DNA of 64,000 bases from contig OZ316892.1 of NCBI GenBank assembly GCA_973895155.1, positions 22,359,168 through 22,423,167 of the forward strand. Direction: 5' to 3'. Both the position numbers and the translations under genes were made by a program. This DNA is from Marsupella aquatica (lineage: Eukaryota > Plantae > Marchantiophyta). Positions within the stretch are counted from its first letter, which is position 1, and the number at the start of each line of letters is the position of its first letter. Positions 10,972 to 56,868 of this stretch are shown piece by piece. Below the pieces are notes generated by a model. That model did no database searches. It saw only the letters and a list, made by a program, of their open reading frames with translations, and had not been told where the DNA came from.

Positions 10972-10973
<2 letters not shown>

Positions 10974-10981
10974 GGCAATTT

Positions 10982-20283: not shown

Positions 20284-20358
20284 ATGGATCCCAACGATAT
20301 ATTCTACGGTGATGACGCTCCAGCATGGTTGACTACATCCAACGGCGACGACTACTGA
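20284..20358 (+). CDS. Acidic micropeptide MDPNDIFYGDDAPAWLTTSNGDDY (24 aa)
   Basis: ATG-to-stop ORF conserved with 8 other copies, mostly through synonymous changes, while its flanks do not align. Confidence 0.75.
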   Translation: MDPNDIFYGDDAPAWLTTSNGDDY

Positions 20359-21870
20359 ACTTTTTGTGAATAACTAAGCTATGGCCTTCTCCATAGATCG
20401 GTGTAGATAGCAGCCATATTCTATTCCATGTCCAATCTTTTGCCGGTTCTACATTTCAAGTCAAGGATCAGGGAAGGACGATCAGTTAGTAATCCTTGGC
20501 CTGGGATATGGACTCCCATGGACTCTCCATTACCTTTTCAGCAGGTCAAGGAGAATGGCGGGCTCCAGGAAATCTAGACCCGTTAAAATGCGTCGAGTGG
20601 TAACTTACAAGACTAAGCACCGCTCAAGGATGAGGTCGAGCTGAAGCGTAAAATGATCTGAACTCTTGTAAATAGGTCATTAATTTTTGATACATTGCAT
20701 GAAACATGTTCAGCTTGAGCACCCCTTCAATCGTTGTCGATATATAGTGAAAAGCGACTTTAGAATATTAAACTGATCGACTGGTCAGCTTAACGGCACA
20801 TATAGTTCATTCTGGGAGCCATATCCCCCTGTACATATCCATACAAATTTATTCTTTGTAAGAAGATACCTCATTCATAGGTTTCCATCTTCACGTCACA
20901 GATCACAGAGTGTGCATATTCTTTATGGATGTCGATCAGATATCCTGCTCTTTGTCGGAAAAAAAATATAGATATGTTTTTGGCTCTCCTCGCAGGGTGG
21001 CCCTTTGGATGTAAGCCACGAAATGTCATTAATTTACTCCTCTGAGCAAAAGCACGCTTTGGTTGGTTTATTTTAACCCTAAATTTCCCGAGCATCTACT
21101 TTATGCAAACCAACGTTGGCCGGAACTTCAATACTGCCTGTTGGTGATTTCCATGCGCGCGCAGAGAGAGGGTATCCAAACTGTCCGATTACTGCATTAG
21201 AATGTAATTCGAATATTGAGTGAGCCCTTAGGGTAGAACATACATGTCAATCATTGTTGGATTGTGCCTCTTAACTCTCGAGGTGCTGCCACTTTGCGCA
21301 AGATTCTCATACCTTCCGGAAAACTCTAGTCCAATCTAAACCCTGTCTGTCATTTATAGCTGCAACAGAAACATATCTTAAACATCTCAAAAACTGATGT
21401 TCTATGGTTAATTAAGTGACTTGCTTTAAACACAAAACAGACCAAAAATAGTGGTTTAGAGAGATACTCGAAACTGGAAAAAATGCCAAGCAGCACGATC
21501 GAAAAGGGAATCAAGACCTCCTTTGCAGGAAACTAGATTTTGGCTGAGCACAGTGCACTTCTCCATCCATCCAAGACGACTGTTGACTGGGCCACCATGA
21601 ATTTGACTAGTATCGATTCTATTCAAACGAAGATTCTATGAAAAGATTCTCTAAAATTGTTACTTTCAAAATGAAATTGCGCAGATCTACAATACTTCAA
21701 GACTAAATATTAATATTCTAGATGCTAAGTATCCAGTAATTCCTGTTTAGAGGGCACTATGGGATGAAATGAGAGCTGTAGCTTGAGTTTTGAGATATTT
21801 ACTTATGGTTCCCATGAACAACACTCATCGAGGTGTTTACCCAACCAAAGCCAATGGCTGGAGACTAAAT

Positions 21871-22120
21871 CTTGGGGGCCTCACTCTAAAGGAGGTTTTA
21901 TAACATGCTTGACTTTTTCAGCTATTAAACACATTAAAAAATAAAATTAAAAAATGAACTATTTTGCTGCCCCTATCTTTTAGAATATTCTAAAAAGATT
22001 TCTAAAATTCATTTTTAAGATACTATCTTCTTTTATAAATTCTAAAAGTATATTTAAAAAATCCTAATATTCTTCTACATAAATTTATCAAACCCTATAC
22101 TTACTTTTGCATGAGTAAAT
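21871..22120. mobile_element. Degenerate MITE of the 8-bp-TSD family
   Basis: Starts CTTGGGGGCCTCACT and has the AT-rich CCCTAT interior; the right end is eroded. Confidence 0.4.
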
Positions 22121-22174
22121 AAGTGTGTCTGGACTAAATATATTGCTCTTACCCAACCAAACTTAAGCCATTGG

Positions 22175-22506
22175 TGTTGAACTAAGACGTCATTCGTAAC
22201 GACCATACAACCATGATTCATTCCATGTACACGTAGTCGACACAATCTCTACGTGGTTCACCTTTTCTCCAAGGCTACGTCCACATGAACACTCAAGCTT
22301 TACTTCAAGAGTAGACGAACACACATCCTCTCCCTCTTCCTCAAGTTGCTCTGTTACAATGAGTAAGCACCACACACCAGCGGCTTACACTAGCCCTGGT
22401 ATATACAAGGTCACACACGACTAACCTAACCTCAGCTAAGATCCTAACTGTGGTTAGCCTAAGTGCCGTAACCTATGAGTCACAAGACTAAGAACAATCC
22501 TTAACA
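22175..22506. mobile_element. Solo LTR (332 bp)
   Basis: TGTTGA...TTAACA ends with a 5-bp TSD ATTGG (22170-22174, 22507-22511). Confidence 0.8.
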
Positions 22507-23577
22507 ATTGGCTGGAGACTAAATTATTGCTCATACTTCTCATGCCCAACCAAAGCCATTGGCTGGTGACTTAATTGTTGCCCATATATAATGCTCTTGA
22601 AACATAGACTTATTACAGTTAAAGGCCTGAGAGGTTTATATTTGTAACCCTAGTAAATAAAGTACACTATAATATTCCCCATCCAGATTTATGTGAAAGG
22701 AGCCCTATGCCTTGCCTGTGTGTTGCACGGTGCAAAGAGGGTCAGCCCATAGGAAGTCTAGCCGGGGTATTTATGGGGTAGCGGGAAGCACATATGTGAC
22801 AGGGGTGCACATTTCCACTATCAGTGGTCAAGAAAATATCAATCAAATCCAAACACATGTGCATTTTTCCACCCAGAGGTTTTTGTATTGGAACAAAAGA
22901 CTAAAAAAGACTTGATACTTTATTATAGTTGTAGATTATAAAATCAAAATGCCCTACATATTACAATACAAAGGCAAAAATCACCAAAGGCGTTACCTAC
23001 CGGTACTTGACCCGGTATAGAGAGTACCAGCACGGGAAAATGAAAATTTTACCTGACCCGGAAAAGACAGTATCAACATGCTAAACTGATAATCTGACCG
23101 CCGCCTGTTGAGGCTCCCGTCCTGGGACGCTTTTGTCATTGACCTTCAGGCCGCGACTGGTCTTTCTGGCTAGACCCGTGCAATCGTTTTCCTCAAGTTC
23201 TTCTCGGCCATTGAATTTTGTGCATAGCTCTCTTCGTCCCCACTGCATTTTGGCTGCACACGCTGTCATCATTGGTAAGACAGGTTCAATTCGTCTCCGT
23301 CGTTAATATTGAGGCACCGAGTCAAAGTCCCTATTTCTACGTGTGCCAAGAATCAGAATCCAGGCTGAGTGGGAAGTAGTCTCTGTGCGCGGTAATGTTT
23401 GTTGAAAATGCTCAGCTGAATGGTTTCAATTTCCCGAGCAAATCTGAGAACGCTCTGTTAGGACGAGGTTTTAGGCGTCTGACAGTTCCAACCTGAATTA
23501 TCTTGCGCCAGTTATGTGACATGGACTGAGCATACGCGGTTGGATTGCTCCACCGTGTCTGCTAAATGGAGGCAAGG

Positions 23578-23583
23578 TATAAA
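23578..23583 (+). promoter_or_regulatory. TATA box upstream of the micropeptide tandem array
   Basis: AAGGTATAAAGT, 210 bp before the first ATG. Confidence 0.6.
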
Positions 23584-23787
23584 GTTATCCTCAGCTTACT
23601 GAATCAAGCACACAAGACTCCTCGATTTGTATCTTCCTCGCGCTCCCTAGATCTTCCATGTCCTCAGATTCTGAATGCTCGTCTACATCCATCCTCAATC
23701 TATCCGTGGCAACGTCTCAAGCTTCCATCAAGGGCCTTGAGGTTCGATTCACGAATTAACCTTCAGAATACGGAGTTCTTCTTTGAA

Positions 23788-23865
23788 ATGGATCCGAATG
23801 ATATGTTCTACGGTGATGACGCCCCAGCGTGGCTGACTGCCTCCAACGGTGACGACGAGTGCTGA
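23788..23865 (+). CDS. Micropeptide MDPNDMFYGDDAPAWLTASNGDDEC (25 aa)
   Basis: Translated directly; GAAATGG start context. Confidence 0.75.
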   Translation: MDPNDMFYGDDAPAWLTASNGDDEC

Positions 23866-23965
23866 TCTATTCTTGAACGCTGCCGTGCCTTATCAGACTT
23901 TCATTCAAAGGCCTTGACAACACATACAAGAGAAAATTCAAAACAGCAGGTCGTCAATCTCTGAA

Positions 23966-24043
23966 ATGGATCCCAATGATATGTTCTACGGTGATGACGC
24001 CCCAGCGTGGCTGACTGCCTCCAACGGTGACGACGACTGCTGA
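23966..24043 (+). CDS. Micropeptide MDPNDMFYGDDAPAWLTASNGDDDC
   Basis: Array unit 2, intact. Confidence 0.65.
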   Translation: MDPNDMFYGDDAPAWLTASNGDDDC

Positions 24044-24142
24044 TCTTTTCTTGAACGCTGCTTCCCTTATCAGGCTTTCATTCAAAGGCCTTGACACCAG
24101 TTGACAAGAGAAATTCAAAACAGCAGGTCGTCAATCGCTGAA

Positions 24143-24220
24143 ATGGATCCCAATGATATGTTCTACGGTGATGACGCCCCAGCGTGGCTGACTGCCTCCA
24201 ACGGTGACGACGAGTGCTGA
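24143..24220 (+). CDS. Micropeptide MDPNDMFYGDDAPAWLTASNGDDEC
   Basis: Array unit 3, intact. Confidence 0.65.
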   Translation: MDPNDMFYGDDAPAWLTASNGDDEC

Positions 24221-24321
24221 TCTATTCTTGAACGCTGCCGTGCCTTATCAGACTTTCATTCAAAGGCCTTGACACCAATTCACAAGAGAAAATTCAAAAC
24301 AGCAGGTCGCCGATCTCTGAA

Positions 24322-24399
24322 ATGGATCCCAATGATATGTACTACGGTGATGACGCCCCAGCGTGGCTGACTGCCTCCAACGGTGACGACGAGTGCTGA
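24322..24399 (+). CDS. Micropeptide MDPNDMYYGDDAPAWLTASNGDDEC
   Basis: Array unit 4, intact. Confidence 0.65.
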   Translation: MDPNDMYYGDDAPAWLTASNGDDEC

Positions 24400-24499
24400 T
24401 CTATTCTTAAACGCTGCCGTGCCTTATCAGACTTTCATTCAAAGGCCTTGACAACACATACAAGAGAAAATTCAAAACAGCAGGTCGTCAATCTCTGAA

Positions 24500-24577
24500 A
24501 TGGATCCCAATGATATGTTCTACGGTGATGACGCCCCAGTGTGGCTGACTGCCTCCAACGGCGATGACGAATGCTAA
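24500..24577 (+). CDS. Micropeptide MDPNDMFYGDDAPVWLTASNGDDEC
   Basis: Array unit 5, intact. Confidence 0.65.
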   Translation: MDPNDMFYGDDAPVWLTASNGDDEC

Positions 24578-24704
24578 TTTACGTTCGAATTGCTATATCG
24601 AGTAATCTAGGTGGGAACCGTGAATTCTTCATGTTCACTGACACGCAACCGACGATTTCATCAATTGCTGCGTTGTATTTCTTATATCGATCCGCATTCA
24701 CGAT

Positions 24705-24758
24705 ATGTTTAACGAAGGTGACGCCCCAGCGTGGATTACTGCTTCCAACGAGTGCTGA
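24705..24758 (+). pseudogene. Truncated micropeptide copy MFNEGDAPAWITASNEC
   Basis: First ATG lost; in-frame deletion. Confidence 0.6.
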
Positions 24759-24854
24759 ACACTGAACGCTGCCGTCGCCTATCAGGTTTCATTCGAAGGC
24801 ATTGAGATCAAGTTCACAAGAGGAAATTCAATATCTGAAACAGATTCGAACGAT

Positions 24855-24887
24855 ATGTTCTACGGTGACGGCGATGACGAGTGCTAA
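24855..24887 (+). pseudogene. Internally deleted micropeptide copy MFYGDGDDEC
   Basis: First ATG mutated to ACA; the central DAPAWLTASN is missing. Confidence 0.6.
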
Positions 24888-25042
24888 CTAATTTCTAACC
24901 CGATTTCTAACCGCCTCATACAAATTTCTAGAAGGGAACCGAGAAAATTCTTCTCGCTCGCTGATCGATACAAATCCGGCGATTTCTCATCTCTTCTGTT
25001 CTTAATATCGATCCGAGTTTTAAGTGCTCCAGTATCACTACA

Positions 25043-25120
25043 ATGGATCCCAACGATATGTTCAACGACGACGACGCCCCAGCGTGGTTGACTGCTACCG
25101 ATGAGGACGACGAGCTCTGA
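25043..25120 (+). CDS. Divergent micropeptide MDPNDMFNDDDAPAWLTATDEDDEL
   Basis: Intact 25-codon ORF in a CAATGG context with unrelated flanks. Confidence 0.65.
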   Translation: MDPNDMFNDDDAPAWLTATDEDDEL

Positions 25121-25289
25121 TCAACTACTGAGCTGCCTTCTCCATCTTATATAGGTGGGGACCGAGAATGGATGGAATCGATTTTCAGAAAAAACCTGGA
25201 ATTCAGCGTTCGGAATTAGTGGTCTCTCTGCTCGATCTTTCCGCATCGATGCAAACGTTCAGGGCTGGAACCTAGTGGTGCTGGAATTA

Positions 25290-25356
25290 ATGGATCCCAG
25301 CGATGCTATCTTCTACGGAAGATGCTACCTCGCCGTGCTTGACAGCCCGTCCCTGA
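25290..25356 (+). pseudogene. Frameshifted micropeptide relic MDPSDAIFYG...
   Basis: The N-terminus matches the family; similarity continues only in a shifted frame (DATSPCLTA). Confidence 0.45.
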
Positions 25357-26765
25357 TTATCTGTGTGCTCGATCGCGATTTTTGGAAAACCCCTGGCAAA
25401 AATTTTCCCCACTCTGTATGGGAGGCATTCTCCAGATCAAGAGTGCCGAAATACGCTGTAGGAATTCGAGCTTGCATGGCAATGACAGTCCCTCCCTCAA
25501 ATGGCTTAAATCGAAGGACAATCATTTCGCGGTCAAATGTATAGAGCCTAACCAGTAGGACTGTATATGCTAAGATTGGTAGGTATTTTTGCAACAGAGA
25601 GGTTCGATGGACTTGAACAGCTCCAGCTGACGAAAATGCATAATCACATCCATGACTCTTGCAGCGAGCTGAATCAAGCTGATTCTCGGTAGCTGTTAGA
25701 AATAGAAACATAGTGATTCGAAGATTTTTTTGTACAAATCCATTCTTTATACAATTATACGGAATTCTTTGTGACGAGACCCTCAGTTGAGGGTCTGTTC
25801 ACCTTCAGCTATAATCATTGAAATTTTTTAACACTGTCTCCTCGATCCACCGGATATCCTGCATTTGTTACCGAGTCCCTTACGCCGCTGCTACTGTTGC
25901 CATGGCAGAGCTAGTTTCAATTTCGTTGTAGCAATGCTTCAACCTACTGTCAAGTTATACAAATATCCAAAAACGACATCTGGGAAAATGCAAGGGAGTC
26001 CTGATTTATTTAGTAAATATATGTGAGCAAGATTACAATGTAGGTCCAGTTCCATGCAGAACTGATGACCAGAAACTAAGTTACTCGTAATGTACGTCAC
26101 TCAATACGTCGACCATTGCTTTCCGAATGGAGATCATTGTGAATATCTTAATGGGGAGGGTATTCTATCGATGCACCGTCACATCCTTCCTGATAGCAAA
26201 TGTCGCACAAGAGCCAACGGTGAACGAAAGCTTGCTCGAGCTCGGAGCAAACTCGCGTTGAGTAGGGCTCCCAGCGATATGTTAAGTGAACAATTATCTA
26301 TTAATACCCAAAGTCATCTAATTTGTTGAGATTTGGCTTTCAAGAATTATCAATCAGCCTTCGCCCCTGGGACACTACACCAGTCAGGACCCGGGTGCAT
26401 CTTCAGTGTGACAGTTTTGTTTAATCAACAATAGACTCATACTTAATGAGGGGCATTTCTTCGAAGAAATGCCCTCAGGAATCGTAAGCGAAGAAGAATG
26501 CTTCGTCATCACGCGTCACTCCTTGTTTCATTTGAGAAGGAGCACCTCCATTGGTTTCCCCGGCTTTATTCAGTTTGGTAAGTGTCTTTCAAGGCACAAA
26601 ATAACCCAAAGGTGTTGGAGAATATCTTGACGGTGGGTAGTTAGTTGGCTGGAGCATGTTAGGCCATTTTTTGGATTAATTTACTCTCGAATAGTTGGAT
26701 AAGGCATTATTTTAGGGTTCCTTACAGGCTACGTAATCAACTTTAGGGCTTCGTAATAAGCTTTA

Positions 26766-28526: not shown

Positions 28527-29972
28527 ATGGAAGGAGTTAGTTTTGATGAGGATGTGCCACAACACCCAGAGCTGCCTGATCTCAACCAATCTGTTCACGC
28601 TGCAATAGCCCAGGGCAGACCCCCTCCTCGCAGGTTCCAACCTGGTCCTGGGCCACAAGCACTCCACTCAATACTGAGAACAGTGGCTTCCTTGATGGCC
28701 TCTATTGCCACTGTCGTCCACCTGATGATGCCCTGGTTTGACAGTCCCACTAATTCAATACTTGACTCCATGGACAACAACTCACTCACTCAGTCAACAC
28801 TCTGCAGAGCACTATTGTTTTCTCACATAGTTCCCTCCTTTTTGCAAGTTGTTGGGTTAGTTCATATTCGACCAAGACAGGTTATAGATTAGTGGTATAT
28901 TAAGCCCCGCACACGACAGAGATTAATCATTTGGATTGATGACACACCTTGGGAGGATCCTCACCATTTTCAAGAGTTTTTCCGAATTAGTCCTCCTCTA
29001 TTTTTCTATATTTGTGAGATTGTGCATGATGATACGATCACAGATCCTCCTATTTCATTGAGAATCCTGCCGAACAGACAACTGTTGGTAATGAGACAAG
29101 TTGCTCTTGCATTGAGACGTCTGGCTACTGGTGATACATTCTTCACAATAGGTGAATTGTTTGGAGTTTTGAAGAGTTCTGCTATGAAAGTGACTTGGAA
29201 GTTCATTTCCTCATTGCGAAGGAGGGCTGCTCATGTAATCCGATGGCCAGATGAGGCAGGCCTTCGTGAAGTGAAACAAGGATTTCAGGACAGATGGGGT
29301 TTCCCCAATTTCTGTGGAGCTAATGATGGCACTCACTTGCCTATTGAGTTGCCATTTGGTGAGGACTCTACTCAATACTATGATTGGAAGCACAAGCTCT
29401 CAGTCTCCATGCAGGGAATTTGTGATCAGAAACTGAGGTTTTTAGATGTATGCTGTGGGCTGCCGGGAAGCATTCAAGATACTAGATTGATGAGGATGTC
29501 CCGGTTTTATTACCAAGTTACACAGCAGCACAGTCGATTGAGTGGGTCTCTATTCCGTTGTGAAGATGGCAGGATGCTGCAAGAGTACATCATTGGGGAT
29601 GCAGGGTATCCTCTTCTACCTTGGCTCATTGTTCCTTTTCCAAGAGGTGTGTCTGAATAGACAGATGCTTTTAACTACAAGTTGTCCAATACGAGAATGT
29701 GTGTGGAAAGAGCTTTTGGAAGATTGAAAGGGACATGGAGAATTCTGAGTAGGGTGTTGTGGAAGCCTCGTATTGAACGACTCGGACCGATGATATTTTC
29801 CTGTTGTGTTCTTCATAATCTCATTATAGATAGGAATGATGGACTGCCAAATGTTGTTTGGCAGTATCATCCACCTCACCCACCAGGCTATGCAGGCGTC
29901 CTTCGTCCCAACAGGAGAATGTATAGAGGGGGGCCAGAGGCACGAATGGCTTTGATGGAGCATGTAGGATAG
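28527..29972 (+). pseudogene. Harbinger DDE transposase (HARBI1-like)
   Basis: FRIS..F, ALALRRLATG, GANDGTH, QGICD, PGSIQD, IGDAGYPL, RMCVERAFGRLKGTWRIL, CCVLHN. In-frame TAG at 28890 and 29658. Confidence 0.9.
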
Positions 29973-30409
29973 TCAGGGTCGTGGATTTAGCAAATGGCCA
30001 CTTCAAAGCTCTCAGCCTTCATTATTTAGTCCATTCATACCATTGTAATGCCATTTGTTTTTATAATGCAATTCTTCTCTTTTTCAGAAAGATTACAGCA
30101 CCTTTAATCTCAAATTTACCTTGGAGTTTGAAATGTAAAATACATTAGCAAGCATGGAGCATGCAACTTGATTCTTCTCATGTCATTCAGATATATGATG
30201 AATTCTTCCATAGAAGCAAACAAAGTTAAGTTCAAAATTGTGCAGATTGAATCTGTCATTGCAAAACATCAAAAACTTGTGCATCAGCTGCAAAAGCATT
30301 GTTTTATCCATGTTTTGAAGTGTAACCTGTTCTGAATGTATTTCTCACTATCAAGCTGAGATTTCTGTCCCAATGGATGTACATAGAGCTTTCAAAACAT
30401 ATCAACTTC

Positions 30410-31455
30410 TCAAGTGTCTGTTGACTGCCTGAGTCCATTTGTAAGGTACCTAACAGAGTCCGCAATGAATGCAAGAGCATTCGCAACATCAATCCCAGTT
30501 TGTCGGGCAGATCGAGTAGCCTCAGCTTGAGCAGCCAAGACATCAACATGTCTCCTGTTGTTGAAGGTGAGGAGTTCGTTGTGCTCCTCCCTTCTTGCCA
30601 GACGGTCCTCAGCAATGGCTTTCACAAAATGGTCGGTCACTTTATGCATCTCATCTCGGGTCCTCTCAGATGCTTTTTTCCGTTTCCAGCCCCTAGTGGT
30701 TGATGGACCAGGATCCTGCTGTCCAGTGACAGAGGCTGGGCTTGTTCCCATGGGGCTTGGGTTGGGGGAGGTGGTTGGTTGAGATGGTGTGCCTCGATCC
30801 ATACCTGTATGACCAGTCTCAGCAGGAGTTGGCGGATCTCGAGTAGTTGATGGTGGTATGTATGAGGTATTAAAAGGTTCTGCATCATCATCTAGGTCTT
30901 CATATGCAGCATCAGGGCTTTCTTGATCACCTCCACCCATGTTTGAATTGGTAGAGGACCATGGTTGGCCTTCAGGAGTTGTTCCTGATCCTGGATCCAC
31001 GAATGATGGACAGCTTCTTCAACCTCAACATCTGCTGTACTGTCAACATACTGATTGGGATCTGGATGGACAGCTCTATTTGCTGGGACAAATACCACCA
31101 TAGCCTCATATATATCTTCCTGGAAAGTAGTGGGCAAGCCTCGATCCTTCTTTTCAGACCTTGACAATTGAAAGTAGCCATCACCGCCAGAGGGAGTGTG
31201 AGCCTGGAAATCATAAATCTTCTTGAAATCTGTGAGCAATTTCTCCCACCTCTTCTTGCACTGCTTCCAGCCCCTTTGAACATTGTTGGCCTTGCAGTTG
31301 TCTTCAATGTCTTTTTACCTTTGCTCAGCTGTTCGAATTCGATCTCTGGATGAATCTAGCTGAGCTTGATCTTGCTGGTATTTCTTGCTATCCACAAGGA
31401 CCAGAAGTTCTCGAGTCTCCCATTGAGCAGTTCGTCCCATGCGGTCCTCTGCCAT
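30410..31455 (-). pseudogene. Harbinger Myb/SANT (trihelix-like) DNA-binding protein
   Basis: MAEDRMGRTAQWETRELLVL...QCKKRWEKLLTDFKKIYDFQ..YFQLSRSEKKDRGLP, then a low-complexity linker and a C-terminal helix. One stop and one frameshift. Confidence 0.8.
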
Positions 31456-37863: not shown

Positions 37864-37959
37864 GTTTCTAAACCTATGTGTTACTCCCGATAATTTTATC
37901 GGGTTGAGTATTCATGTGCTTCTTCTTTGGCCATGTGAGTGAATATATCGTTTGAACAG

Positions 37960-38112
37960 TTTGAATACTGAACCTGATAAATTTATCGTTGTCACAATTT
38001 TTCATTACGGTCTTGTGTTTGAATACTGAACCCGATAAATTTATCGTTGTCAGAGTTTATCATTACGGTCTCGTGTTTGAATACTGAACCCGATAAATTT
38101 ATCGCTGTCAGG
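37960..38112. repeat. 3 x ~58-bp tandem repeat carrying the GATAAATTTATCG palindrome core
   Basis: TTTGAATACTGAACC(C/T)GATAAATTTATCG(T/C)TGTCA occurs three times. Confidence 0.9.
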
Positions 38113-43671: not shown

Positions 43672-43907
43672 GGCAAAGTCTGCAAATAAACAAATTCCAA
43701 TGCAAAGAGCGATAAAATTATCGCCGCCAATCTCACAGCACATGTGGACATGACATCTCATCACACAAGGACAAAGAGACCCGCAATGCAAATGACCAAT
43801 AAAATTATCACAAAAGTGAGCCTTCTTTAAATTGACGGCCGAGTGTACAGGTCGAAGAATCAACTACGGAACCCTAAATCCAAAACCTTAACCCCTAAAC
43901 CTAAACC

Positions 43908-44620
43908 CTAATCATAGTTGAACCTCGCCAGAGCGAAGCGTTCGATCCGCTTCTTGGGCCATTGGGGAATATGAGTGACGCGATGATCATAAGCCCACAG
44001 CCAATGGAAATCAACTTCACCAGTCTCAGGATTCACTACTGCTACTGAATACCGGCGTGACGGAATGTCACAACAAGCATTTGTGCAGCATGGACAGATC
44101 TCACCATTGGCAAGGACGTTCGTCCACAGGCAACTTACATAGATCAAGTTAAAGAGCGCACAGACTGGCTGGGGGGGGAGTTGATGAATCTTGTATGAAT
44201 ATATTTTCCCACCAGTGTCAATAAAAAACTCAGTGGCAAGAGGATTGTCCAGCTCGTCAATCACATCCTGAATCTCATCGAATGCTCTACGTCTGTTGTC
44301 GGCATAGAATTCTGGCTCATAAGTAGGATTGCCCTTCACAACATGACAGCAGTGGAGTATAAAACGTCTTACTGCACCGGTTTTTAGAAAGAGTAGGATA
44401 ACTCTTCTAGAAAATCCAACATATCTATCCCACCGAATATAAATTTCTCCCCTACCTGATCTACGTAGAAGTGAAATGCGTTATGGTAAAACGGTTTTAC
44501 TACCAGCCTGCATATCTTTAAAATTAGTGACTCATCCAGCCTCCTTAGCTGGTCCAGCATGGCTCCATTCCCCCATTCTGGAGGATCCAAGTAGGGTACA
44601 AAAATGCGTCGCTCGAGCAT
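43908..44620 (-). CDS. Unknown transposon cargo ORFs (44384-44620 and 43908-44339), possibly one disrupted gene
   Basis: Protein-like composition, a CPCCTNACC cluster, and the same strand as neighbouring cargo. No family recognised. Confidence 0.35.
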
Positions 44621-44935
44621 GGCCTGATCACCGAATAGAAATCAGGAATAATTTTTGGAGAACATACTAATTACAATTCTACAAGTTTCATCCAACTTTA
44701 CAGTACCTTGTATAACGGGCTGTGAAGCCAATGCACTTGTCAGCTAATCATCCGAAGAGGCGCAAACAAATACACTCTGGACCACACAACCCAAAGTCAG
44801 GGGAGGTAGAGTCAATTACATTCAAAGTGTTTCTTTACAAGCTCTTCTCGAGCAAACCTTAGAGCACCCAAAATCGACTAGAGGAATGAGGAGTGCGATA
44901 AATTTATCGGATGTTCGCAGCAATGCCTCATCCAC

Positions 44936-45484
44936 TCAGACTTGTCCATGCCATGCAAGAATTGTCCGCTTCCCGCTTTCTCCAAGATTTATCCAAACTC
45001 TACGAAACTGATCTAACTGCTCATACGAAAAGCACCCAAGCATATCTATGGGAGGGAGGAAATGAGTTTCCTCTCGGAAGACCCTAGCAATATGTATGTT
45101 TGAGAGAAGGTCGGCATTAGGAATGTTTGCGAGCATTTTATTTATGTCATTGATCTCACGGACTGCATATTTCAATAGCGCCCAAAATCGTGTACCAACA
45201 ACAAGATGGTTCCATTTCTTTGAGGTGGTTCCAAGACAAATGATTGTTCTCATTCGAGTCAGTCGTTCTTTTGGTAGAAGTTTTAGGTCAAGGCCAAGGT
45301 GTTCATCTTGTGTGCAAGACAAGGCTAGGAGGGGCCAAATGTGAGATTCAACGAGTTGATCGGGAAGTCCATTCAACAAACTTCTGCATTCCACACCGGG
45401 CACTTTTCCTCAAATATATTTCCTACGCTCGTGGGCTAAAACGGATCCCATCTTTGCAACGATTAGATTCTCTGACGTAGCCAT
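44936..45484 (-). pseudogene. F-box-like cargo ORF
   Basis: LLNGLPDQLVESHIWPLL...ICLGTTSKKWNHLV resembles an F-box. The upstream ATG at 45484 is separated by one TGA. Confidence 0.45.
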
Positions 45485-48400
45485 GAAGCAGAGCTACCAA
45501 AACCACCAATAAAAATACCTTCAATCACCAAGTGTAACCGAACACATCCACAGTACCAACCCTGCATGACAGTTTAACGATTAGGACTCGTGACGTATTA
45601 TATTCGCTGCGCAAGGGTAGGACTTGTTTATTTAAATATGTCCTTACAAGATGCGCCTCAATGCAAAGGTCGAAACACTCATCGTGAAAGGTTCACCCAA
45701 GGGTCTTCGTTCCAAATCTTACAACAGAAGTGAGCCTGTTTGTGGTACTTGTTGTCAAGACGACAACAACAATAGTTACAAGAAAACTCCAAAGAATGTA
45801 AACACGCCGTTAACATCAACCTCGAACGAATTGGAACTCCTGCATCATTCATTCCGCAAAATTCAATGCGGAGAGGATTCTGCCTATCTCCAGGATCAGT
45901 ACCACCCATCCACAATGCTCCTATACCGATGGGGAGAACTTTGAGTCGCACGAGTCTCTTGTACAACCGGCGTGCACGTTTGACACAATTTTCAAGGAAG
46001 ACAGCCATTTGTCACAATACCTGTTGTCCACGGAGTGCAATCGACCTTCCGTTGTGCCTCCTAAACCCGGCAACACTGCGACATCAGAGATGAAGATGAG
46101 TCTCCAAACAAAACAAAGGAAAATGATTCTCACAGGAGGATGCGATAAGTTTATCGCACTCCGCATTCGAATTGAAAATATGACTTCCTTAGACACCTAA
46201 GCCCTGAATTCAATCTTTCACAAAAATGACAACTCCGATAAATTTATCGGATTCTCAATTACTCCTCTTTCCATAAAAGAAATGAAGACTCCGATAAATT
46301 TATCGGAATGAAGGCAACACCTCTCTAAACACTGGAACAAATGATTGCAACAGAGGAATGCAGAATGCGATAAATTTATCGCAGTCCGCTCGGATCTGGA
46401 CATTTTACACTAAATCACTAGTTAGTCTTACATGGAGAACTTGAACAGGAATGGCTGTTCCGATAAATTTATCGGGTTTTCGGTAGAAAGAGTCGAATCG
46501 CTTGGGAGGAATGTAAGACTCGATGGGAGTTTGGTATTCGCTCTCAGTCAGGAGATATTTGCTCTGGCGAAAGCAAACGTTTTATGGGCAGCCCGCTCCT
46601 CTTTATATAGGAGACGCTCTAAACCATGGTTAATTTCCCCTTTACCATGGTTAAGTTTCCCCTTTACCTGGGTTAGTGCGTGGTCGTTCCTGGATTACAC
46701 GGTTCGGACCAAGTTACTCGTAGTTTGGACTTTTTCACTGACGGAATGTAAAACCCGATGCACGTATCACTCCTTGCATTCCCGCGGCGATGCAATGGAG
46801 GAAAGTGGCATTTCGGAGAGTTTTTGCCAGTTTTATCGGTCATTGCATTGCCTTAGAAAAAAATGGGATCGGGCTAAACGAGAACTCCGACACACTTCTC
46901 GGTCGGTCCGAAATCGTGTTTACAGCCTAGTAACCGTGCGCCCAGACCTGCATTACCCTATACATAACTCTTGGAGGTGAGTGAGAAACTGACCCGCATG
47001 GGAAACGGCAAACATGGGTGGTGATGACCAGAGCGAGCATGGGCCATCCCCTTGACAAGACTCAACGGGAAGATGTGTACAACCATTGGGTGTCCCAATC
47101 TTGGTGACAGCCATGGGAATGGGTGACCTCCCAAAAACATTGTGACCACTGTAAAAACATTTGCTGAACTGCTCCAATTTTTTGGGTCATCACCATGGAC
47201 TCGCCATCTTGGGGTACTTTTGGAAAACCCAGGGGAAAACTCTCCTATTTTTGGCGGTGATCACCATGGGATATGGCTCTGGTAGGGAATATTGGAGAAC
47301 CCCATTACTATTTTTGGGCCAATTTAATTTTTTTGGGTGATCGTTATGGGATGTGGCCAGGGTACAAAATATTGGGGAACCTATTCACTATTTCTGGGCT
47401 CCTTTAATAATTGTGGGTGATCACCATGGGATGTGGCCATGGTAGGGAAATATTGGGGGTATGGAACAAGAAATTTATTAGGATGTGGCAGTGCCCTAAA
47501 TATAGTGAACCCTTTTTTTGTGATAAAGGGGTTTGTGGATCTGTCGCATCCGAGAGATCTTTTTGCAATGGGAGCTAAGAGGGTACCATAGGGGCAAGAC
47601 ACATTAGGGAAGCAGGATGATCGCCTTGAGGTTGGGAGAGTGAGACAAGGGGTCCCGGTAAGCATTATCCTGGACGGATATTGGGTCCCATCAACCCACC
47701 ATCAAAGTCTCAATACTCTTGCAATGGAGTGGTGGTTATCACTTGACATCTTTTTATTATTTTGATATATTTTTATCACTTGACATCTTCTTATCACTCC
47801 ACATCTTTTGTGCAATACCGGGGCATTGGGTTGTGTATGATAAAAAAATTATTTATTTTGAAATTTGGTAAAATGTATGACCTGACACAAAGTGCATCAA
47901 GGATAGGGTACGAGGGGCTCAATAAATATGTATGATCTGAGATTAAGTGCATAAATGATATCAAATGCACTTATTGGATAATGCACCGTACACATGGAGA
48001 TTCCGCAAAGGACATCTCGTACAATCATGAGGATAACTGCAAATTTGGGGTGGTGCTTGGGGTGGTTTCCCGGCAGGGAGCCTGCACTTAAAATGGGGAA
48101 TACTTATGCAATTAGGGCACGCATTACGAAATGGGTATACTTCTGCGCTTAAAATAGGGTATACTGTACGGGCGCCATACTTTACAGCATGGGCACGCGC
48201 AAGTTCTAAACCCGGGAGAGTCAAAAGACCTCAACTGTACGCTTTGCAAGGACTCGTCAGATTGGTTGGGTCCACGCTCGTTTGCATGGGGATTCGATCT
48301 TGCACTTTTTAAAAGAATCATAGTTTATTATATGTGGACCTGCAACAGAGGTCAACGTGGGGAACGTCAACACGAATGTTCCTTAAAAACTTTTCACGAT

Positions 48401-51400
48401 GATTGAATAAGCATCATTCTGCCGCAACTTCCGCTATGAAGGAAATTGAGAATTGTTCCTCTGCGAGTTCTGTGGATTTTGTCAGCAAATAACAAAGACA
48501 GTGCTCTTGAGGTGAACCGGTACAAGCGGATATCATTCACAGCAACCTCAGTGGAACAGGAGCATGAGAAGAATCAAAGTCAACCGGAAACTTACGAAGG
48601 CTCCCACTGGTCAATGGGAAGAGGCGTCTTGTTTCAACAAAAAGTATTCCACATCAGCTTTCGAAAACAGAATTGAAGGACTCGAGACCCATATTGAGAC
48701 AAAGGCACTAGTTGTACAACCATGACGTTCAGTACAGTCCTCTTTCATCTACGTACGCTGATTCGCTCTCGTCAATGAAGGACATTACAATAAAACAGAA
48801 AAGCACCATTACCACTCATCTAGTGTGCCCTGGATAAGGTATCACTTGACGATATGTAGAAGAGTGTTCTTCGATGAGTGCAGTGAATCATTCTTGTGTT
48901 AGTCCAAGTACTCACTAGTACGTGAATAGTAAGGTGGCCACACCTTAATTTGGTGCGTTGACACCATTCAATCGACTGGTCCTCCAGTATTGTTGTAAAC
49001 GATCAAGCTACGGGTACAATATATCGTGTACTTCACTAATGCGGTGGTCACTACCACCGAAATCGTCAATACAAACACTAGTTACTCGTCTGTGCTACTA
49101 CTCCACTCTCCTAAACTGTACCCGGTCGCTCTGCTACGCGGATGAGCAAGCTCACATAGCCAGGTGTATTAGTCGTTTGCTGCCTTGTTTGTAATCAGTG
49201 CGTACTCTCTCAGTCATGTTGTAACCGAGTTTCCCAAAAATAGGCTGACCGCTGAATTGACTAGGGCAGCTGAGATTAGTCTCGTTCTGTGGAATTCTCG
49301 ATATCAATTAGGATAAATGTTTTGTCCGTCCCACACGAATTATCAGTATTTTGCCACATTGTTGCACATGCAAAATTGACAATCGCCCTGTTAGCTAAGA
49401 GAAGTGAAATACCCTGGTCTGCGAATAGTTTCCCTACGTGTTGTACACTAAGTGTTACTGCAAATGGATCAGGATGATATGTTTTTATATGTTGATGACT
49501 GCCTCAAACGGCGACTATGCCTGTTGACTTGCATTTGCCGCTGAGCTTCTCTGGAACAGTTCGCGAATGATTCACTGTGTACAGAACAGCTGCAACTGAT
49601 GAGAAGCAAATCCTAACATGCTTATCTGCTCCATTGGCAACCTGTCAAGCAGGATATATACCCAGACGAGTACCCAGAAAGATCATTTGCACTCATTTTT
49701 CACCCAAATTTTGTCAGGTGAAGTGCGAGTGCCAATCTCATTTCACCATCTTACACACCGAATAACATAGCTACAATTAACTGTGACAAGAGACTTGGTG
49801 ATCGAAGAACTCTTCCAGAAAACAACCACTGAGCTAAATAATCAGGTGCTCTACAAAGCATGCATGTCAGTGTGGGAATAGGAAAATAGTGCAACTTGCT
49901 CAATCATATGGTTCCGGATTTGCACTCGCTAGTCAGTGAATCTTGCATGATTTGCATTCATGAAGTCAAGGTTAGAAAACGCACTCAATCTTTGTACCCT
50001 CTCATGAAATTCGAGGTGCGATTTGGGAAAAACTAAGTTATCTGATGTGTATTCGTCTAGTGGTTACATTGCAAATTGTACCTTAATGTCCTGGAACACC
50101 TTTACAAGTCGCTCAAGTATGTTGGAATCAGGCGCTTTCTTTTAGATTGCGCTTCCAAGTGCAGATCGTCAACAGTGTACCATCTTGAGTCGCACTCGAT
50201 CCACTTTCGCTGGTATTTAGGGGAGCTTTCCCCATGTTATTAATCTGATTATTTATCCGTCACCAGTAAAGTTCCTGAAGGACTGTCGATGCCCCCATCG
50301 CCGGTGTCCCTTTCATTGTCTAAGTTACCTTGTGTCTTCTGTACATATACTAGCTCATTGCTACATTCCTCATTAGTGGAGAATCAATAAACATTCTTAT
50401 AAATTTTATATCCAGTCAGTTTATCGTTTAAGTTGTTTCTTTGGGAATTCAGTGGCTGAAGTCCATGCCACGATTCACTTTGACTTGACTAAACGTCAAA
50501 TAAGATTGCACACATTGTCAGATGGCTTCATTTCCATCGTGCGATGGTTATGTTGCTTAATTCACTCTGCCTTATGTATGTAGCACCTGTAATGCTAAAG
50601 TAAACGAGCTCTTCATCATTAGGGTTTGAGCCCCCGTTCAACATTTATCCCTATTGCTGGAATTCAGCGATATAATTATGCAGGACCTATTGTCACCATT
50701 GAATATGAATCGTAGATTAAGATCCGTACTAGGAAGCACAAAATTTTATGGAGACAGGTAAGGCATCCACGTTGCTAGACTCATCATGACTTGAAGCATT
50801 CAAGTTTCAACCTTCGACTCAACTAAACTTGACGTTGCTAAGACAGGGAGCGAAAGAAAGGTCCACCACTCCACCTAGCTTTCAATTAATGCGGAACCGC
50901 TAAAAGTACATGTAGTTGTTCTCCGAAAGAGCTTTAACCCCTAGAACTACCTGTAGACGCGGACATGGACAAGAGTTGGTTGTGAAAGCAGGTGGGCAGG
51001 CTTCTACATCTGATTAAAGAGCCTATTACGTAACAACAAATGCTCGGTATTAAAACACTCCTCGCTGACCAATTAATGTACTGAGCATTGGCTAGAACAT
51101 AAACCTCAACCCTAGATATGGCTAACGACATTGATTTGGGCCTCTCAATGGATCGAGCACTCGATCCGCCCAAATATTCGTTGCCGTCGGTTTGCGCCTC
51201 CTAGCTAGTATCAATCAGCCACCTATCGGAGTCCCGGTAACTCTGCACATCAAAATATGACATAAAATCAGTGAATGCACCCTTGTATTACCACATTTTG
51301 GGCTACCTGTCCTGGGAATTTGTTTGGGGTGCTAAAAGTTTACGTAGGTACTTGTGCAGAGTAGTTGAACGAAGATAGGCGCAGCCATGGAAGACTTTTG

Positions 51401-54189
51401 ACGACAGTCACAACTGCGCACATGTTTTTATTCTACGTGATGGAGCTAACTATAAATTGTTATTGTACAGGACCATTCGATTTGTACCTGGTTGACCTAG
51501 CCTCACTGCACTCGTAGAAATAATAGATTTTCCCGTGGACTAGTCAACGATTTGAAACCTTACTCATAGAAATCACAGATTGTCAGGTACACTAGTGAAC
51601 GATTTGCAACCTTGCTGACTACATGAACCAAAATTCGGGTCCCCTAACTGCACATCAAAATATGACATATTGTGTATTACATCCCTCCATACCATGATAA
51701 ATCTACTTAGTTTCTTTAAATCAATGAGTTGCACACCACATTTTGATGTGTGATTACCTGCATGCCAAATCTCTACCCCGACAAAATTATGGTACATCCT
51801 CCTTGAATGGGATAGTCATACTGATCTACCAGTAAGTGCCTGTCCAAACGAACTCTGAAGGGCCAGGAAACTCCCACCAGCAAGTCTATAGGAAGTGGCC
51901 GTGCGACGCGCGTATGGGCAACTTGAGGCTGACAAGTTATCATGAGAAGGTAGTGACACGTCTCCATCCTTGTTGGGAAAGATTTTGAAGACCGTCAGAG
52001 TCATGTAGACACAGATTGCTACCCTATTGATAACTGACTGAAGGAAGCATTAGGTGCGATAAGTCGCCTTCCCCAGCTTGTGTAGTCGTAATCGACAATA
52101 ATGACTAGTGAAAGCATACTCGTATTTGATTTCTGATCTCCAAATGTAGAAGAGGAATCTTTGGACTCGGTCGGGACTCGGGAGTGCAGACCTTAAGTAC
52201 TCTAATTGAAGCGTGGACTTTCACCATCAACCTCTGAGTTTAACTTTTTCGGCCATTGACGACGGCACAACAAGAGACAACTGCAGACAAAGCCATAAAG
52301 TTCTAGCAAAAGTCAATGGAACGAAACGTACGAGGTTTTTGTTTGACATGCCGTCATGAGCACTTGGGAGGAAGCCAACGATGTGTGATCCCAACGATGT
52401 GATCCCAACGAGCTTAATTATCTAGGGTTCACCTTATTACCAGATTTTAAGACGATGCACCCGTTCTAAAGATTCTGGTTCATGGTCACTGGCTGATAGG
52501 AAACAAAAACCATAGCCAGTTTTAGAGAAGTGGCGAATACTTATGAGATGGGTGGAATCTAGCTAATTTTTCGCTACCCAACTCCTCAGTCCCCGGCGAC
52601 TCTCAGTGCAACCATGAACGGTGGGTAAGCTGCTGTCGATGACAATGGCTACCCACTGTCGTTGCGTGAAATAGGATCTAAGGCTGTGAGAATTCCTACA
52701 GTAACAGCTACAGTGAGGTTGCATGAGCTCAAAGGACTTTCTAGGCGTTTTCCGGTGGGAAGATCAGGAATCAATTCAAGTATCCCCAGAGCCTTGCTTC
52801 AAACAACAGCGATGAGCTCGTCAAATTCTCAAGCTCATGTGCGAAACCTGCCATACAACCGAACGAGAAGAATGAATTGGAGTGAATTCGAGTGAGTGAA
52901 AAGACTGAGTGTTGTACGTTCAAATTGTTGATCAATTTGATTGAAATCAACACGAGTAGGATAGAGTAGATTTTTGTGTTCCGGATATGCAGCATTGTTT
53001 TCTGTCCAGTTCTCATTCGAGAATTGCTAGGAAGCCTGTTAGAGAATTGAACGAAACCCAACACAACTGACCCACCCCGCAGCAGTAGACGAAATCGAGT
53101 ACTTCAATCATACCAGGTTTTCAAAATCATTGACAAAAACCTACACCCACCTGCAGCCGACAAAGAGCTGATCCTATATTCAGAGAAATAGTTTCCAATC
53201 AAACGTAACTCATCATATTCCCTCTGCGTTCATGATGTACGAAATTGACAAAAGAAACCATTTTAAGCACAAGAGGCATTAATACGATTCGCCTCTGTAA
53301 AATGATATAATATAAGAAGTGTGATTGAACATGAGCTCATGGAAGATTACTGTGGAGCGGCTCTCATATCCCTGTACATTTTAACTACTGTATGAATGTT
53401 GATGCCTCTTCGTTGTTCAGACAATGTCTGGGATCGAGGGAGTCTTTTTACATGGAGTGTCACCGGGAGTCTCACACCCACCCTAAGAAAATTGTCATGA
53501 TTTAAGTCTTCTTGAATATTAAACTGTTCGGATGTTCGGATGTTTTTGATGCTCATGAGATATAATGTGCACGAGTGGAGCATGTACTCAATGAATAAAA
53601 GATTATCAGTTTTGAAAGCGAATGCCCTTGAATTAGGGGATTCTCCCAAGATTCATCTGCCTATAAAGAATTTGAACTGTACACGTAAATTTTCAAGACC
53701 TTCGTGTGTTCTGGATGGGAGCAACTATTGGAGCTCGTCAATTGCCAGACACCGCTGCCCAAAGAATGCAAATACTGTGTGTTTCTAAATGGGGTGCTTA
53801 CTTGAGGATGCCCCCAGATCTCAATCCTAGGAATTGTCTGCCTATTTACAAGAAAATTGTTCGCGCTGCTTTTGGTCAGGACCTGATCCAGCCACTATTT
53901 GGAGGATTCGGCCTTGATAACCATGACCGTCAACTGAGCTCGCGAGAATCTATGCACCGCCACGCAAATGTGTGTGATCCTTAAGAGCGATCTGTAAGAA
54001 TCCAATTCATGTTGCATTTTTTGGAGACCTTGACCGCTTCTGAAACCTGAAACTGTCAAATCCTGTCTGAATATGATCATTCTTGCTCTTGTGCATAGCA
54101 TTGCTGCCAACTATGCCCAGAAGCTGAGAACCTCAATTCTTCACCCCCTCAGTCCGCTGGAATGTTTGCAAAGACACTATTCCAGAAAA

Positions 54190-54264
54190 TCAACAGTCGT
54201 CGCCGTCGGTGGCGCTCAGCCACGCTGGGGCGTCATCACCGTAAAACATGTCGTTGGGATCCAT
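54190..54264 (-). CDS. Micropeptide MDPNDMFYGDDAPAWLSATDGDDC (24 aa)
   Basis: Intact minus-strand ORF in an AAAATGG context; TATAAA at 54558-54553. Confidence 0.75.
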   Translation of the reverse strand: MDPNDMFYGDDAPAWLSATDGDDC

Positions 54265-56793
54265 TTTAGGAAGCGGATTTGTGAACGGATTTGTGAAGTG
54301 TTGACTCAATCAAATGGTTCAACGGCGTACAAACTTGTCGCCTGCAATTGGATGGCAGATCGTTGAATGGCCAGTCCAGAAACTGGTTTGATCTCAGCCC
54401 TCAGAAAGCTCTCGGTTGACAATTCGAGAGGAGACTTGCTGTTTGGAGTCCTTGTTGTGTAGTGCTTGATAGCGCTCTGGAGCTGTGTTCAATGGTGAAA
54501 TGAAATGAGTGTGAAGTTCTCTGATACGAGAGACTTGCTGTCCATGGCGGACTTTATACAGCTCGCCATCACGAGGTCTACGCGTCCGAAAAGGCTCGGC
54601 CCATGCCCTGCCTCCACCGCGTCGCTGAGGCTCAGCCCGGACCATCAAAGTTGACCTGACAAGGCTGGAGAGACGGACCGCGGTATAGGTGTGGTTCGTC
54701 AAAACAGGGGATTATTATTAATTGGTTAGCAATAAAATCTACTCCGAAGCAAAACTGTTTCCTCCCTTGGATCATCGAATCCAACGGCTTTTTGTGGCCT
54801 TTCATTCGGTATTTGTTAAGTCAGTCTGTGCGGTCACCGGCGAGAGTACCAGACCTAGCTGGTCAAGGCCGGGACATGACCGTGAGGTAAGGTACAGGGA
54901 CGCGGCACAGGAACTCCTCATCAAGTCGTTACATCGGAACGACGCGTTTACAGTTACGGGGCACTGTAAAGTTGGGCGAGTCGTTGTTTGTCGCGAGTAC
55001 TTTACTGGCTCCAAGACCCGCTACATTGCTTGACAGTACAGTGCGTGCCATGTAAGTTTAGTAATTCTGCTTTACGGTGGTGTAAGCCCCAACCTTTGGC
55101 TTCATGGGGTCAACTTTGAAAATCTCCTTGATGGGAGTGTTATCTTTGATCAACTGTGGGCTGCCGTTCCAACCCCCGCCAAGTAGAGGTTTCTCCCATG
55201 AAGCAAAGTTTTTGAGTTTAGGCCAGCTAATTAGAAGTAGTTATTACCACAATTACAAGACAGAATATCTAATTTATATAATCACAATCATAGACCATGG
55301 TTTGGGGCCTATGGTCTAGAGTGAAGATATGTTCTAGAGTGAAGTCTTTAGACTGTGCATATAGAGCTCAATAGGTCTCAATAGATCCCATCAGAGCTTA
55401 GTGAGTTTCGTGTAGTAACAAAAATACTCACCAATATTTATGATTTTTTTATCATTTAACTTATTTCCGTGGCCAATCTTGTCAACTAAAAGCAAGAAAG
55501 GGGCCGACATCCTCTTCTAATGTCAGTTCCAGTGTGACACTGAATCTGCTTCCGCACTCAACTTGAGGTATTAATGCTCAAAACCAGTTGGTCCATTTAA
55601 ATTTACATGGGTGTCATACCCTTGTAGCAGTGCAGCAATTTATATCACCAGATAGTACATAATTAAAATTTTCATTTTGAAAAGTAAAAGAAATTTGATC
55701 TACTCAGTGTGCACCAGTTTCCCCCCCTCCCAAAATCAGAAAACAAAAAGAATTCCCCCTCCTCCCACCACATGAAGCATCCCAAGTCCACTTTGTCCGC
55801 CCTCATCCCCCTCCCCTGTGCCCCATGCCAATACCCTCTCACCAGCTACTAATGTTTGGAATGTGGTTTTGTGTAGGGTAACCCATTCCCAAGAGGGGGC
55901 AATGGGATGCCCTCCTAGAAGACCCCAGGGGGTTAGGGCCCATTAGCCCCAAGTGTAAAGCCTAAGTGAGTTTTTGAATCATTCACATAGTTTTTACAAT
56001 CATTAATAAAGTCTCATCTGTCAGTCTGTCACTTGCGCTTTAGGGTATATCTCATTCAATTCCAGAATCCCCAGGCCAGGTTGGCACAGGGGTTCCATGG
56101 CCTCACCCGGGGTAATGCCTGGTAACCACTTGCAAAGACACAAAGAAAAAAAATTCACGAGGGGTTTAAATTTGCACAATACACTCCATTCCTTATTTTT
56201 GTTCAGTGTTTTGTAGGGATCCTGGTTGATGAGCCATTAGATTTCATTATCGAAAGGTCAATATTTAAAGCTGTAGTGCGGAGCAAGTAAATCCGATGGA
56301 CAAATTCAACGTCTCCCGTCGCTACGGTAATGCTCTGTGTGACGCGTGGTTCTACTACGAAGGAGCGTTTGAACCACACCGCGCAGTTACCTCACGGACG
56401 GACTGCGTCCACTGCAGTCCTTCTCTATGGCAGGGTCAGGTCAACTTTGATGGTCAGGCTAGGGACGCTGAGCCTCAGCTACGCGGTGGAGGCAGAGCCC
56501 TTCTCGGAGCTGTATAAAGTCCGCCATGGACGTCAAGTCTATCGTATCACCATCTCACCATTGCACACTGCTCAACGGCGCAATCAAGCTCCACACAACA
56601 AGGACTCCTGCCAGCAAGTTTCCGGGCCACTCCTCCTCTCGAACTATCAACCCAGAGCTTTAAACCGATTTCTGGACGGCTCATTCAACGATCTGCGGTC
56701 GAATTTCAGGCGCAAAGTGTGTACGCCTTTGAAGCCATTTGGTTGGGTCAAGGCTAGAGTATTGTACTCAGTTCACGAGTCCACCCTCCTAAA

Positions 56794-56868
56794 ATGGATC
56801 CCAACGATATGTTCTATGGTGATGACGCCCCAGCGTGGTTGACCGCCTCCGACGGTGACGACTGTTGA
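56794..56868 (+). CDS. Micropeptide MDPNDMFYGDDAPAWLTASDGDDC (24 aa)
   Basis: Intact ORF in an AAAATGG context; TATAAA at 56513-56518. Confidence 0.75.
   Translation: MDPNDMFYGDDAPAWLTASDGDDC

Follow-up and report, generated by a model that had tools for sequence, protein, structure and literature searches.

A 64,000-nt stretch of the genome of the liverwort Marsupella aquatica (contig OZ316892.1, positions 22,359,168 to 22,423,167; the whole stretch is termed the window) carries, at four loci (A, B, C, and D) and on both strands, nine intact open reading frames (ORFs) of 24-25 codons that encode short acidic peptides. Purifying selection acts on this peptide frame, and sequence comparison identifies the copies as members of a real, undescribed micropeptide family of liverworts that is misannotated in Riccia. 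An initial annotation of this DNA had reported nine intact copies at four loci on both strands, and all of them were found within the span that it gave.

The evidence for selection comes from codon comparisons among five copies: A, C, D, and, from the array at locus B, B1 and B8. In all ten pairs, the Nei-Gojobori ratio of nonsynonymous to synonymous divergence (dN/dS) was 0.04-0.19, at dS values of 0.49-1.69; these ratios lie far from a value near 1 and agree with the purifying selection claimed in the initial annotation. Relative to the majority codon, we counted 17 synonymous and 8 replacement changes (9 replacements under another tie-break), which, as the copies are related, are approximate events and to that extent weaken the argument. 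The synonymous excess has a binomial p of 6e-7, or at most 1.1e-5 when a transition bias of 4 is allowed. When all six frames were examined, the ratio of synonymous to replacement changes was 17/9 in the peptide frame versus 6/20, 3/23, 5/20, 13/12, and 2/24 in the others, and the peptide frame is the sole one that is both stop-free and synonymous-rich. Variable alignment columns number 5, 5, and 15 at the three codon positions. The differences among copies had been described as mainly synonymous or conservative; the synonymous excess holds, but the changes in B8 (Y8N, G9D, G21E, and C25L) are less conservative. A purine occupies position -3 in eight of the nine ORFs and a G position +4 in all nine, the latter because Asp2 is conserved; both features together are found at 13.7% of the ATGs in the window.

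Copies A (20284-20358, plus strand), C (54190-54264, minus strand, with its ATG end at 54264), and D (56794-56868, plus strand) are 24-codon ORFs read from the sequence, as are the 25-codon ORF B1 (23788-23865) and the intact copies B2 (23966-24043), B3 (24143-24220), B4 (24322-24399), and B5 (24500-24577), which start 100, 99, 101, and 100 nt, respectively, past the preceding stop. B8 (25043-25120) is also intact but is the most diverged copy (dS ~1.1 and dN 0.11 relative to B1) and has no TATAAA of its own. A nucleotide profile (nhmmer) added four decayed copies that the initial annotation had missed, three in array B and one at a fifth locus: B6 (24686-24758; E 3.8e-12) has lost its first ATG and retains a 17-codon frame from an internal Met, B7 (24840-24887; E 6.8e-06) has lost its first ATG and has its core deleted, B9 (25290-25346; E 0.0027, together with the sequence) is frameshifted, and copy E (49464-49527; E 0.0034) has a deleted core and a frameshift. 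All copies of array B and copy E lie on the plus strand, and the best remaining match of the profile in the window had an E value of 0.57. The final Cys is present in seven of the nine intact copies and absent from A and B8.

The ORFs are conserved in otherwise unrelated surroundings. Alignments of 400-nt flanks between loci score 16-26, with shuffle maxima of 24-30; this supports the earlier statement that the flanks cannot be aligned except within the inverted pair C/D (scores 212 and 235), to which the downstream flanks of B1/B8 (36, same array) and, marginally, of A/C (26 versus a maximum of 24) have to be added as exceptions. Loci C and D form a head-to-head inverted duplication of ~1.1 kb (53620-54690 and 56410-57480), in which a 92-nt segment 3' of the ORF is 93% alike. 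No terminal repeats surround the copies, and the flanks are not common to the loci. We rejected a reading of the ORFs as mini-exons, because each copy reaches an in-frame stop at codon 25-26 and A, B1, B8, C, and D have no GT in common near the ORF end.

Relatives in liverworts and copies outside the window

A profile search of 1.84 billion protein representatives returned four matches at E 0.001: P0001, a Logan protein whose end is a near-identical peptide, R1flu_011955 and R1flu_000934 of Riccia fluitans, and P0002, a fibronectin-repeat protein of 1626 aa that we rejected as an artefact, its score being summed over 10 stretches. A second profile retained four proteins among 21 candidates and added R1sor_011800 of Riccia sorocarpa. 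The three Riccia proteins match at E 2e-10 to 4e-7, begin at the homologous Met, and are annotated as hypothetical proteins of 66-104 aa with no function given. Their heads are identical at 22 of 24 positions between R1flu_011955 and R1sor_011800 and at 14 of 24 in each remaining pair, whereas their tails give shuffle-level scores in all three pairs and are most likely gene-prediction extensions. Homologous heads with unrelated tails in three models indicate that the family is common to liverworts and misannotated. According to the accessible part of its description, the R. sorocarpa annotation combined transcript and ab initio evidence (PMC11735767), so the Riccia models are no proof of expression. 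Across eight aligned sequences, the pattern N-D-x-F-x-x-D-D-x-P-x-W-L is invariant; variable parts include the N-terminus, the acidic tail, and the final Cys.

One result counts against the docking on a protein partner that is proposed below: the artefact aside, no longer protein bearing the motif was found at E 0.001 among the 1.84 billion representatives, the protein databases searched containing called genes only. A word-indexed protein search with the window copies alone gave no candidate, a false negative because P0001 and P0004 are in that database. The peptide has no match in Pfam (at E 1) and no significant match in PDB, and neither the peptide nor its DNA has one in NCBIfam or Rfam. 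Sub-significant PDB stretches in the bulb-lectin-like repeats of 4oit, in herpesvirus gL, and in a light-harvesting complex I (LHCI) chain were rejected. The ESM Atlas gave no usable feature match, its structure rows being short-helix matches, and pattern scans of metagenome DNA gave 0 matches in two of two. In the open literature, to which the search was confined (subscription journals being outside its scope), we found no description of the motif (GDDAPAW among others) or of such a liverwort family, and the parts of the supplements of PMC13642808 (part of one file), PMC11923412, and PMC12744755 that were available contain neither the Riccia gene identifiers nor the motifs.

Four sequencing runs contain the region, with coverage like that of genomic DNA (all 30 bins covered in three of the four). 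In run X1, which is near-identical to the window and may be its source, 17 contigs align to copy D at 80% likeness, with a summed depth of 441 at the ORF centre versus 20.5 in the upstream flank and 15-21 on single-locus contigs. Depth itself is no copy number, but about two dozen copies would fit these values. Two contigs of X1, one of 3175 nt and one of 5733 nt in which a pair of copies is separated by 4.3 kb, fit no spacing found in the window, so at least three copies lie outside it. Among the variant letters listed for contigs of the four DNA runs on copy D, 11 of 14 are synonymous according to our own mapping of letters to codons, and the other three are G9D, T17S, and S19T; those absent from all window copies are synonymous in 5 of the 5 listed cases.

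In a second organism (B; runs X3 and X4, window positions 19500-26000), one haplotype matches the window exactly and the other is clearly diverged, as would be the case in a hybrid or allopolyploid. In the diverged haplotype of locus A, the ORF shows at least two differences, one synonymous and the other (T18A) toward the family consensus, and indels occur only outside the ORF among the rows listed. Between loci A and B, the segment at 22104-22537, a high-copy repeat inserted there, stands out in all four runs by its very high summed depth of contigs.

Upstream elements and the layout of array B

Each locus is preceded by the same TATA-like box, GTATAAAGT, which occurs exactly four times in 128 kb (both strands of the window), one per locus, against 0.47 expected under an order-3 Markov model. 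The box lies 188 nt 5' of the ATG at locus A (20096-20104, plus strand), 211 nt 5' of the B1 ATG as the sole box for array B (23577-23585, plus strand), 295 nt at locus C (54551-54559, minus strand), and 282 nt at locus D (56512-56520, plus strand), matching the ~190-290 bp given in the initial annotation. Three of the four ACGCGGT occurrences in the window lie 31-63 nt 5' of these boxes: 43 nt at locus B (23534-23540, plus strand), 63 nt at locus C (54616-54622, minus strand), and 31 nt at locus D (56481-56487, plus strand). The decayed locus E retains a relic ACGCGG at 49136 with a TATA-like relic ~30 nt beyond, a spacing that matches the intact loci. CGCG boxes are linked to CAMTA factors, and this putative CGCG-box-like element would make expression inducible. 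We offer inducibility as a weak and rather doubtful proposal; it is opposed by locus A, which has ACGCAT only, and by the fact that C and D are not independent cases.

A single TATA box serving the six intact ORFs of locus B may give rise to a polycistronic mRNA, a consequence that the initial annotation did not draw. From B1 to B5, stops and following ATGs are separated by 99-101 nt, the spacers are free of ATGs, the start contexts are gaaATGG, and there is one TATA box; on this strand, no TATAAA occurs between 23584 and 33863, the next one being at 33864. Gaps of ~100 nt suggest that there is little space for a terminator plus a promoter between the ORFs. The available part of Galindo et al. 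2007 gives the limits for re-initiation on the insect tarsal-less mRNA as ORFs <35 aa and a spacing of 40-200 nt (PMC1852585); the tarsal-less layout of repeated ORFs within these limits behind one promoter is matched by B1-B5 (25 aa, 99-101 nt), as far as layout goes. The same source suggests that repetition of the tarsal-less ORF perhaps raises dose. Here too, dose would plausibly be raised, both through the number of genes and through re-initiation on one polycistronic mRNA from locus B, a proposal that we regard as evenly balanced.

Several observations weigh against the polycistronic part of this proposal. The copies B1-B5 are a recent tandem of a 178-nt unit with 93% matches, spacers included, so their intactness is weak evidence. 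Three copies of the array are decayed, and ATG-free spacers are no significant finding, since an independent spacer has a chance of 0.12-0.24 of containing none. Between B5 and B8, the intervening 465 nt contain ATGs at 24631, 24705, 24855, and 24874, plus two starting in the last B5 codons, which would intercept scanning ribosomes, and the leader of B contains two upstream ORFs (uORFs) of 33 and 21 codons in weak context.

Most of these features fit a different account of locus B: the first ORF alone would be in use, with B2-B5 lying as passive recent duplicates within or past the 3' untranslated region, and B8 would be an independent gene whose promoter is not recognised. The tandem unit with its similar spacers, the decayed copies, and the ATGs ahead of B8 all speak for passive duplication, and we consider it a credible alternative that falls somewhat short of probable. 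It does not readily explain why the B1-B5 frames are unbroken although their spacers bear indels (99-101 nt), nor why B8, an old copy by its dS of ~1.1 relative to B1, is held at dN/dS ~0.1 with no TATA box of its own in the TATAAA-free interval. This alternative concerns array B only and not the reality of the family. If array B is indeed transcribed as one mRNA, it would be a plant nuclear polycistron of repeated peptides, of which we found no description in the literature searched; a true polycistron of this kind would offer a natural test case of re-initiation in plants.

Proposed action and rival functions

The peptides have a mass of 2.6-2.9 kDa, a net charge of -6 to -10, and a grand average of hydropathy (GRAVY) of -0.7 to -1.1, with no basic or hydrophobic leader, which bears out the earlier remark that they lack a signal peptide. 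Secreted plant peptide hormones (CLE, CEP, PSK, PSY, RGF, and RALF) carry an N-terminal signal peptide on a longer precursor, whereas these peptides have 24-25 aa and no hydrophobic stretch. A 99-aa in-frame extension of B1, for which Pfam gave no match, begins 5' of the TATA box.

The copies are very probably transcribed and translated: small TATA-box genes would be transcribed, and the peptides would be translated directly without a signal peptide. Each peptide would then stay in the cell and dock its invariant N-D-x-F-x-x-D-D-x-P-x-W-L on a conserved protein partner, serving as a decoy or adaptor that is needed in quantity and acts by dose. By analogy with IRON MAN acting on BRUTUS-type E3 ligases, or with tarsal-less, the peptides could well act by presenting a short linear motif to a protein partner, although we would not put this above an even chance. 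We hold the combined explanation, a selected family of non-secreted TATA-box micropeptides docking inside the cell, with middling confidence. An internal core of aromatic and acidic residues with variable ends is the usual shape of a docking motif; the invariant core and loose ends of this family are our reason for committing to a peptide that stays inside the cell and binds a conserved protein. This pattern fits a precursor of a ribosomally synthesized and post-translationally modified peptide (RiPP) or a chelator less well, because the RiPP core is variable and a chelator would depend on Cys and Asp, not on F, P, W, and L.

An unlikely function, though the best placed among the rival ones, is that of RiPP precursors cut or cyclised by a protease or cyclase into a small natural product. 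Orbitide and fungal MSDIN precursors are short, signal-less, and multigene; prolyl oligopeptidases cleave them after a Pro or Ala, behind which lies an acidic follower. The present peptides resemble them in their small size, many copies, lack of a signal peptide, invariant Pro followed by an aromatic residue, and acidic tail, and a high copy number suits a bulk product. However, they have no hypervariable core between a conserved leader and follower, their middle being most conserved and their ends variable, and they lack a second conserved Pro: Pro3, the would-be core boundary, is absent in all three Riccia copies. No prolyl oligopeptidase or other protease, cyclase, BURP, or other tailoring gene was found in the Pfam-scanned translations of the window (which do not include every short frame), apart from a sub-threshold caspase-domain match at 60167-60505.

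It is somewhat less likely that the Asp-rich chains buffer metals, chelating Ca, Fe, Cu, or Zn and being made in bulk under mineral stress. The net charge, the D/N-G-D-D tails, and the final Cys of most copies would suit such a role, as would the sole host gene found in the window, which encodes a copper protein: an intact two-exon phytocyanin (plastocyanin-like) at 18041-18730 on the plus strand, 1.5 kb 5' of locus A, with readable splice sites, a hydrophobic N-terminus, and a PF02298 match at E 3e-16 (its exon had no match in the word-indexed protein search). A single neighbouring gene is no evidence of shared function, however. The Cys is missing not only from A and B8 but also, at that position, from the homologues P0001, P0003, P0004, and P0005, and the invariant F, P, W, and L are superfluous for chelation.

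We regard as improbable that the peptides are precursors of an extracellular signal perceived by a receptor kinase. Pep and systemin do derive from signal-less precursors released on damage or by unconventional secretion, a strict short core in a multigene family would suit a receptor ligand, and a Tyr with acidic neighbours is reminiscent of sulfated plant peptides. But this Tyr varies (it is replaced by N in B8 and by G in R1flu_000934), sulfation requires passage through the secretory pathway, and the conserved core lies inside the peptide, not at its C-terminus.

Very improbable is the alternative in which conservation of the 75 nt reflects a DNA or RNA element (a structured RNA, a small-RNA site, or a piece of a transposon) and the ORF is incidental. 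The window is transposon-rich, and RNAalifold gives a weak consensus structure of -8.3 kcal/mol with two-sided changes in 2 of 13 pairs. However, this covariation is matched by 222 of 500 shuffles for pairs with two-sided change and by 44 of 500 for the score, folding z values relative to synonymous recodings range from +1.2 to -2.0, and an Rfam scan of the window gave no match; this cause of conservation, raised in the initial annotation, thus finds no support in the three analyses. The variation is codon-periodic in one frame, and the copies lack the terminal repeats and shared flanks of a mobile piece. Hairpins like those of microRNA precursors (pre-miRNA) 3' of the ORFs have z values above -1.4 in 15 of 16 windows, with one at -2.6.

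Equally remote is a role as conserved uORFs or nascent-chain stalling peptides controlling a downstream gene in cis: the length of 24-25 codons and a Trp placed 9-10 residues ahead of the stop are reminiscent of known arrest peptides, and an ATG frame follows 82-88 nt downstream of both C and D, but those two frames differ by a 13-nt frameshifting indel and have no Pfam match, no homologous main ORF follows A or B (flanks at shuffle level), and the Riccia tails are mutually unrelated.

The window as a whole is 43% GC plant DNA consisting mostly of transposon remains. Positions 6994-14874 hold a CACTA-type element (Transposase_21, DUF4216), next to which lie a SET-domain ORF that lacks introns (10982-11743, PF00856 E 5e-7) and an ORF of 363 aa with no Pfam match; this is possibly a transposon carrying a chromatin modifier. 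A Harbinger-like pair at 29091-30940 consists of a DDE_Tnp_4 ORF and an opposite-strand ORF. Positions ~34000-46500 hold a DUF7869 element with several long unknown ORFs, dotted with the near-palindromic repeat CCGATAAATTTATCG and including a DNA-methylase-like ORF (40104-41237, N6_N4_Mtase E 5e-5, below the cut-off). The caspase-domain match at 60167-60505 (plus strand; PF00656, E 4e-4) lies in a stop-to-stop frame and may be a metacaspase relic or due to chance.

Comparison with known systems

Conserved families of non-secreted plant micropeptides are rare, and the few known, IRON MAN and ENOD40, proved to be important regulators. The present family falls below gene-annotation cut-offs and is misannotated in two Riccia genomes; its lineage has tractable models, so that target and phenotype are directly testable. 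True homologues, by their common start position and invariant core, are the Riccia proteins R1flu_011955, R1flu_000934, and R1sor_011800. By their motifs, the peptides belong to neither the IRON MAN nor the tarsal-less family.

IRON MAN (IMA/FEP) peptides are, like those described here, small, non-secreted, Asp-rich, and multigene, and they compete with bHLH IVc factors for the BTS/BTSL ligases, as far as the accessible parts of PMC10167411 and PMC9226616 describe them; competition for a protein site is the mode that we propose, by analogy, for the present family too. The order of an acidic run and then A-P-A/S is reminiscent of the IMA end YDYAPAA, whose C-terminal PAA is needed for BTS/BTSL binding according to the part of PMC9226616 available. 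None of the nine window copies has a PAA end, their A-P-A/S being internal and followed by the invariant W-L and the acidic tail, and because this C-terminus is absent the family is not a member of IRON MAN. IMA peptides are induced by iron deficiency. They have ~50 aa with the Asp-rich consensus in the C-terminal region (PMC10167411, in part) and are described from angiosperms, whereas the Asp-rich peptides here have 24-25 aa and another order of elements. ENOD40 transcripts of plants likewise hold more than one short ORF for a peptide, but they encode two different peptides and contain a structured RNA region, as stated in the available text of PMC12744755; here there are repeats of one peptide and no supported RNA structure.

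The closest likeness in layout is to the insect gene tarsal-less (polished rice, mille-pattes), which, in the portion of PMC1852585 accessible to us, has very short, signal-less, unprocessed peptides encoded by repeated ORFs with one conserved motif, a spacing of ~100 nt and a length of <35 aa that fit re-initiation, as in array B, and a trend to more copies and whole-gene duplicates. The LDPTGXY motif of tarsal-less given there is absent from all copies here, which, unlike tarsal-less, are strongly acidic peptides of 24-25 aa in a land plant; loci A, C, and D have single ORFs, and polycistronic translation at locus B is proposed from layout only. We tentatively suggest that array B could be a land-plant counterpart of tarsal-less: a nuclear liverwort mRNA giving 5-6 copies of one regulatory peptide by re-initiation, within an undescribed intracellular system of about two dozen copies per genome with a conserved target of its own.

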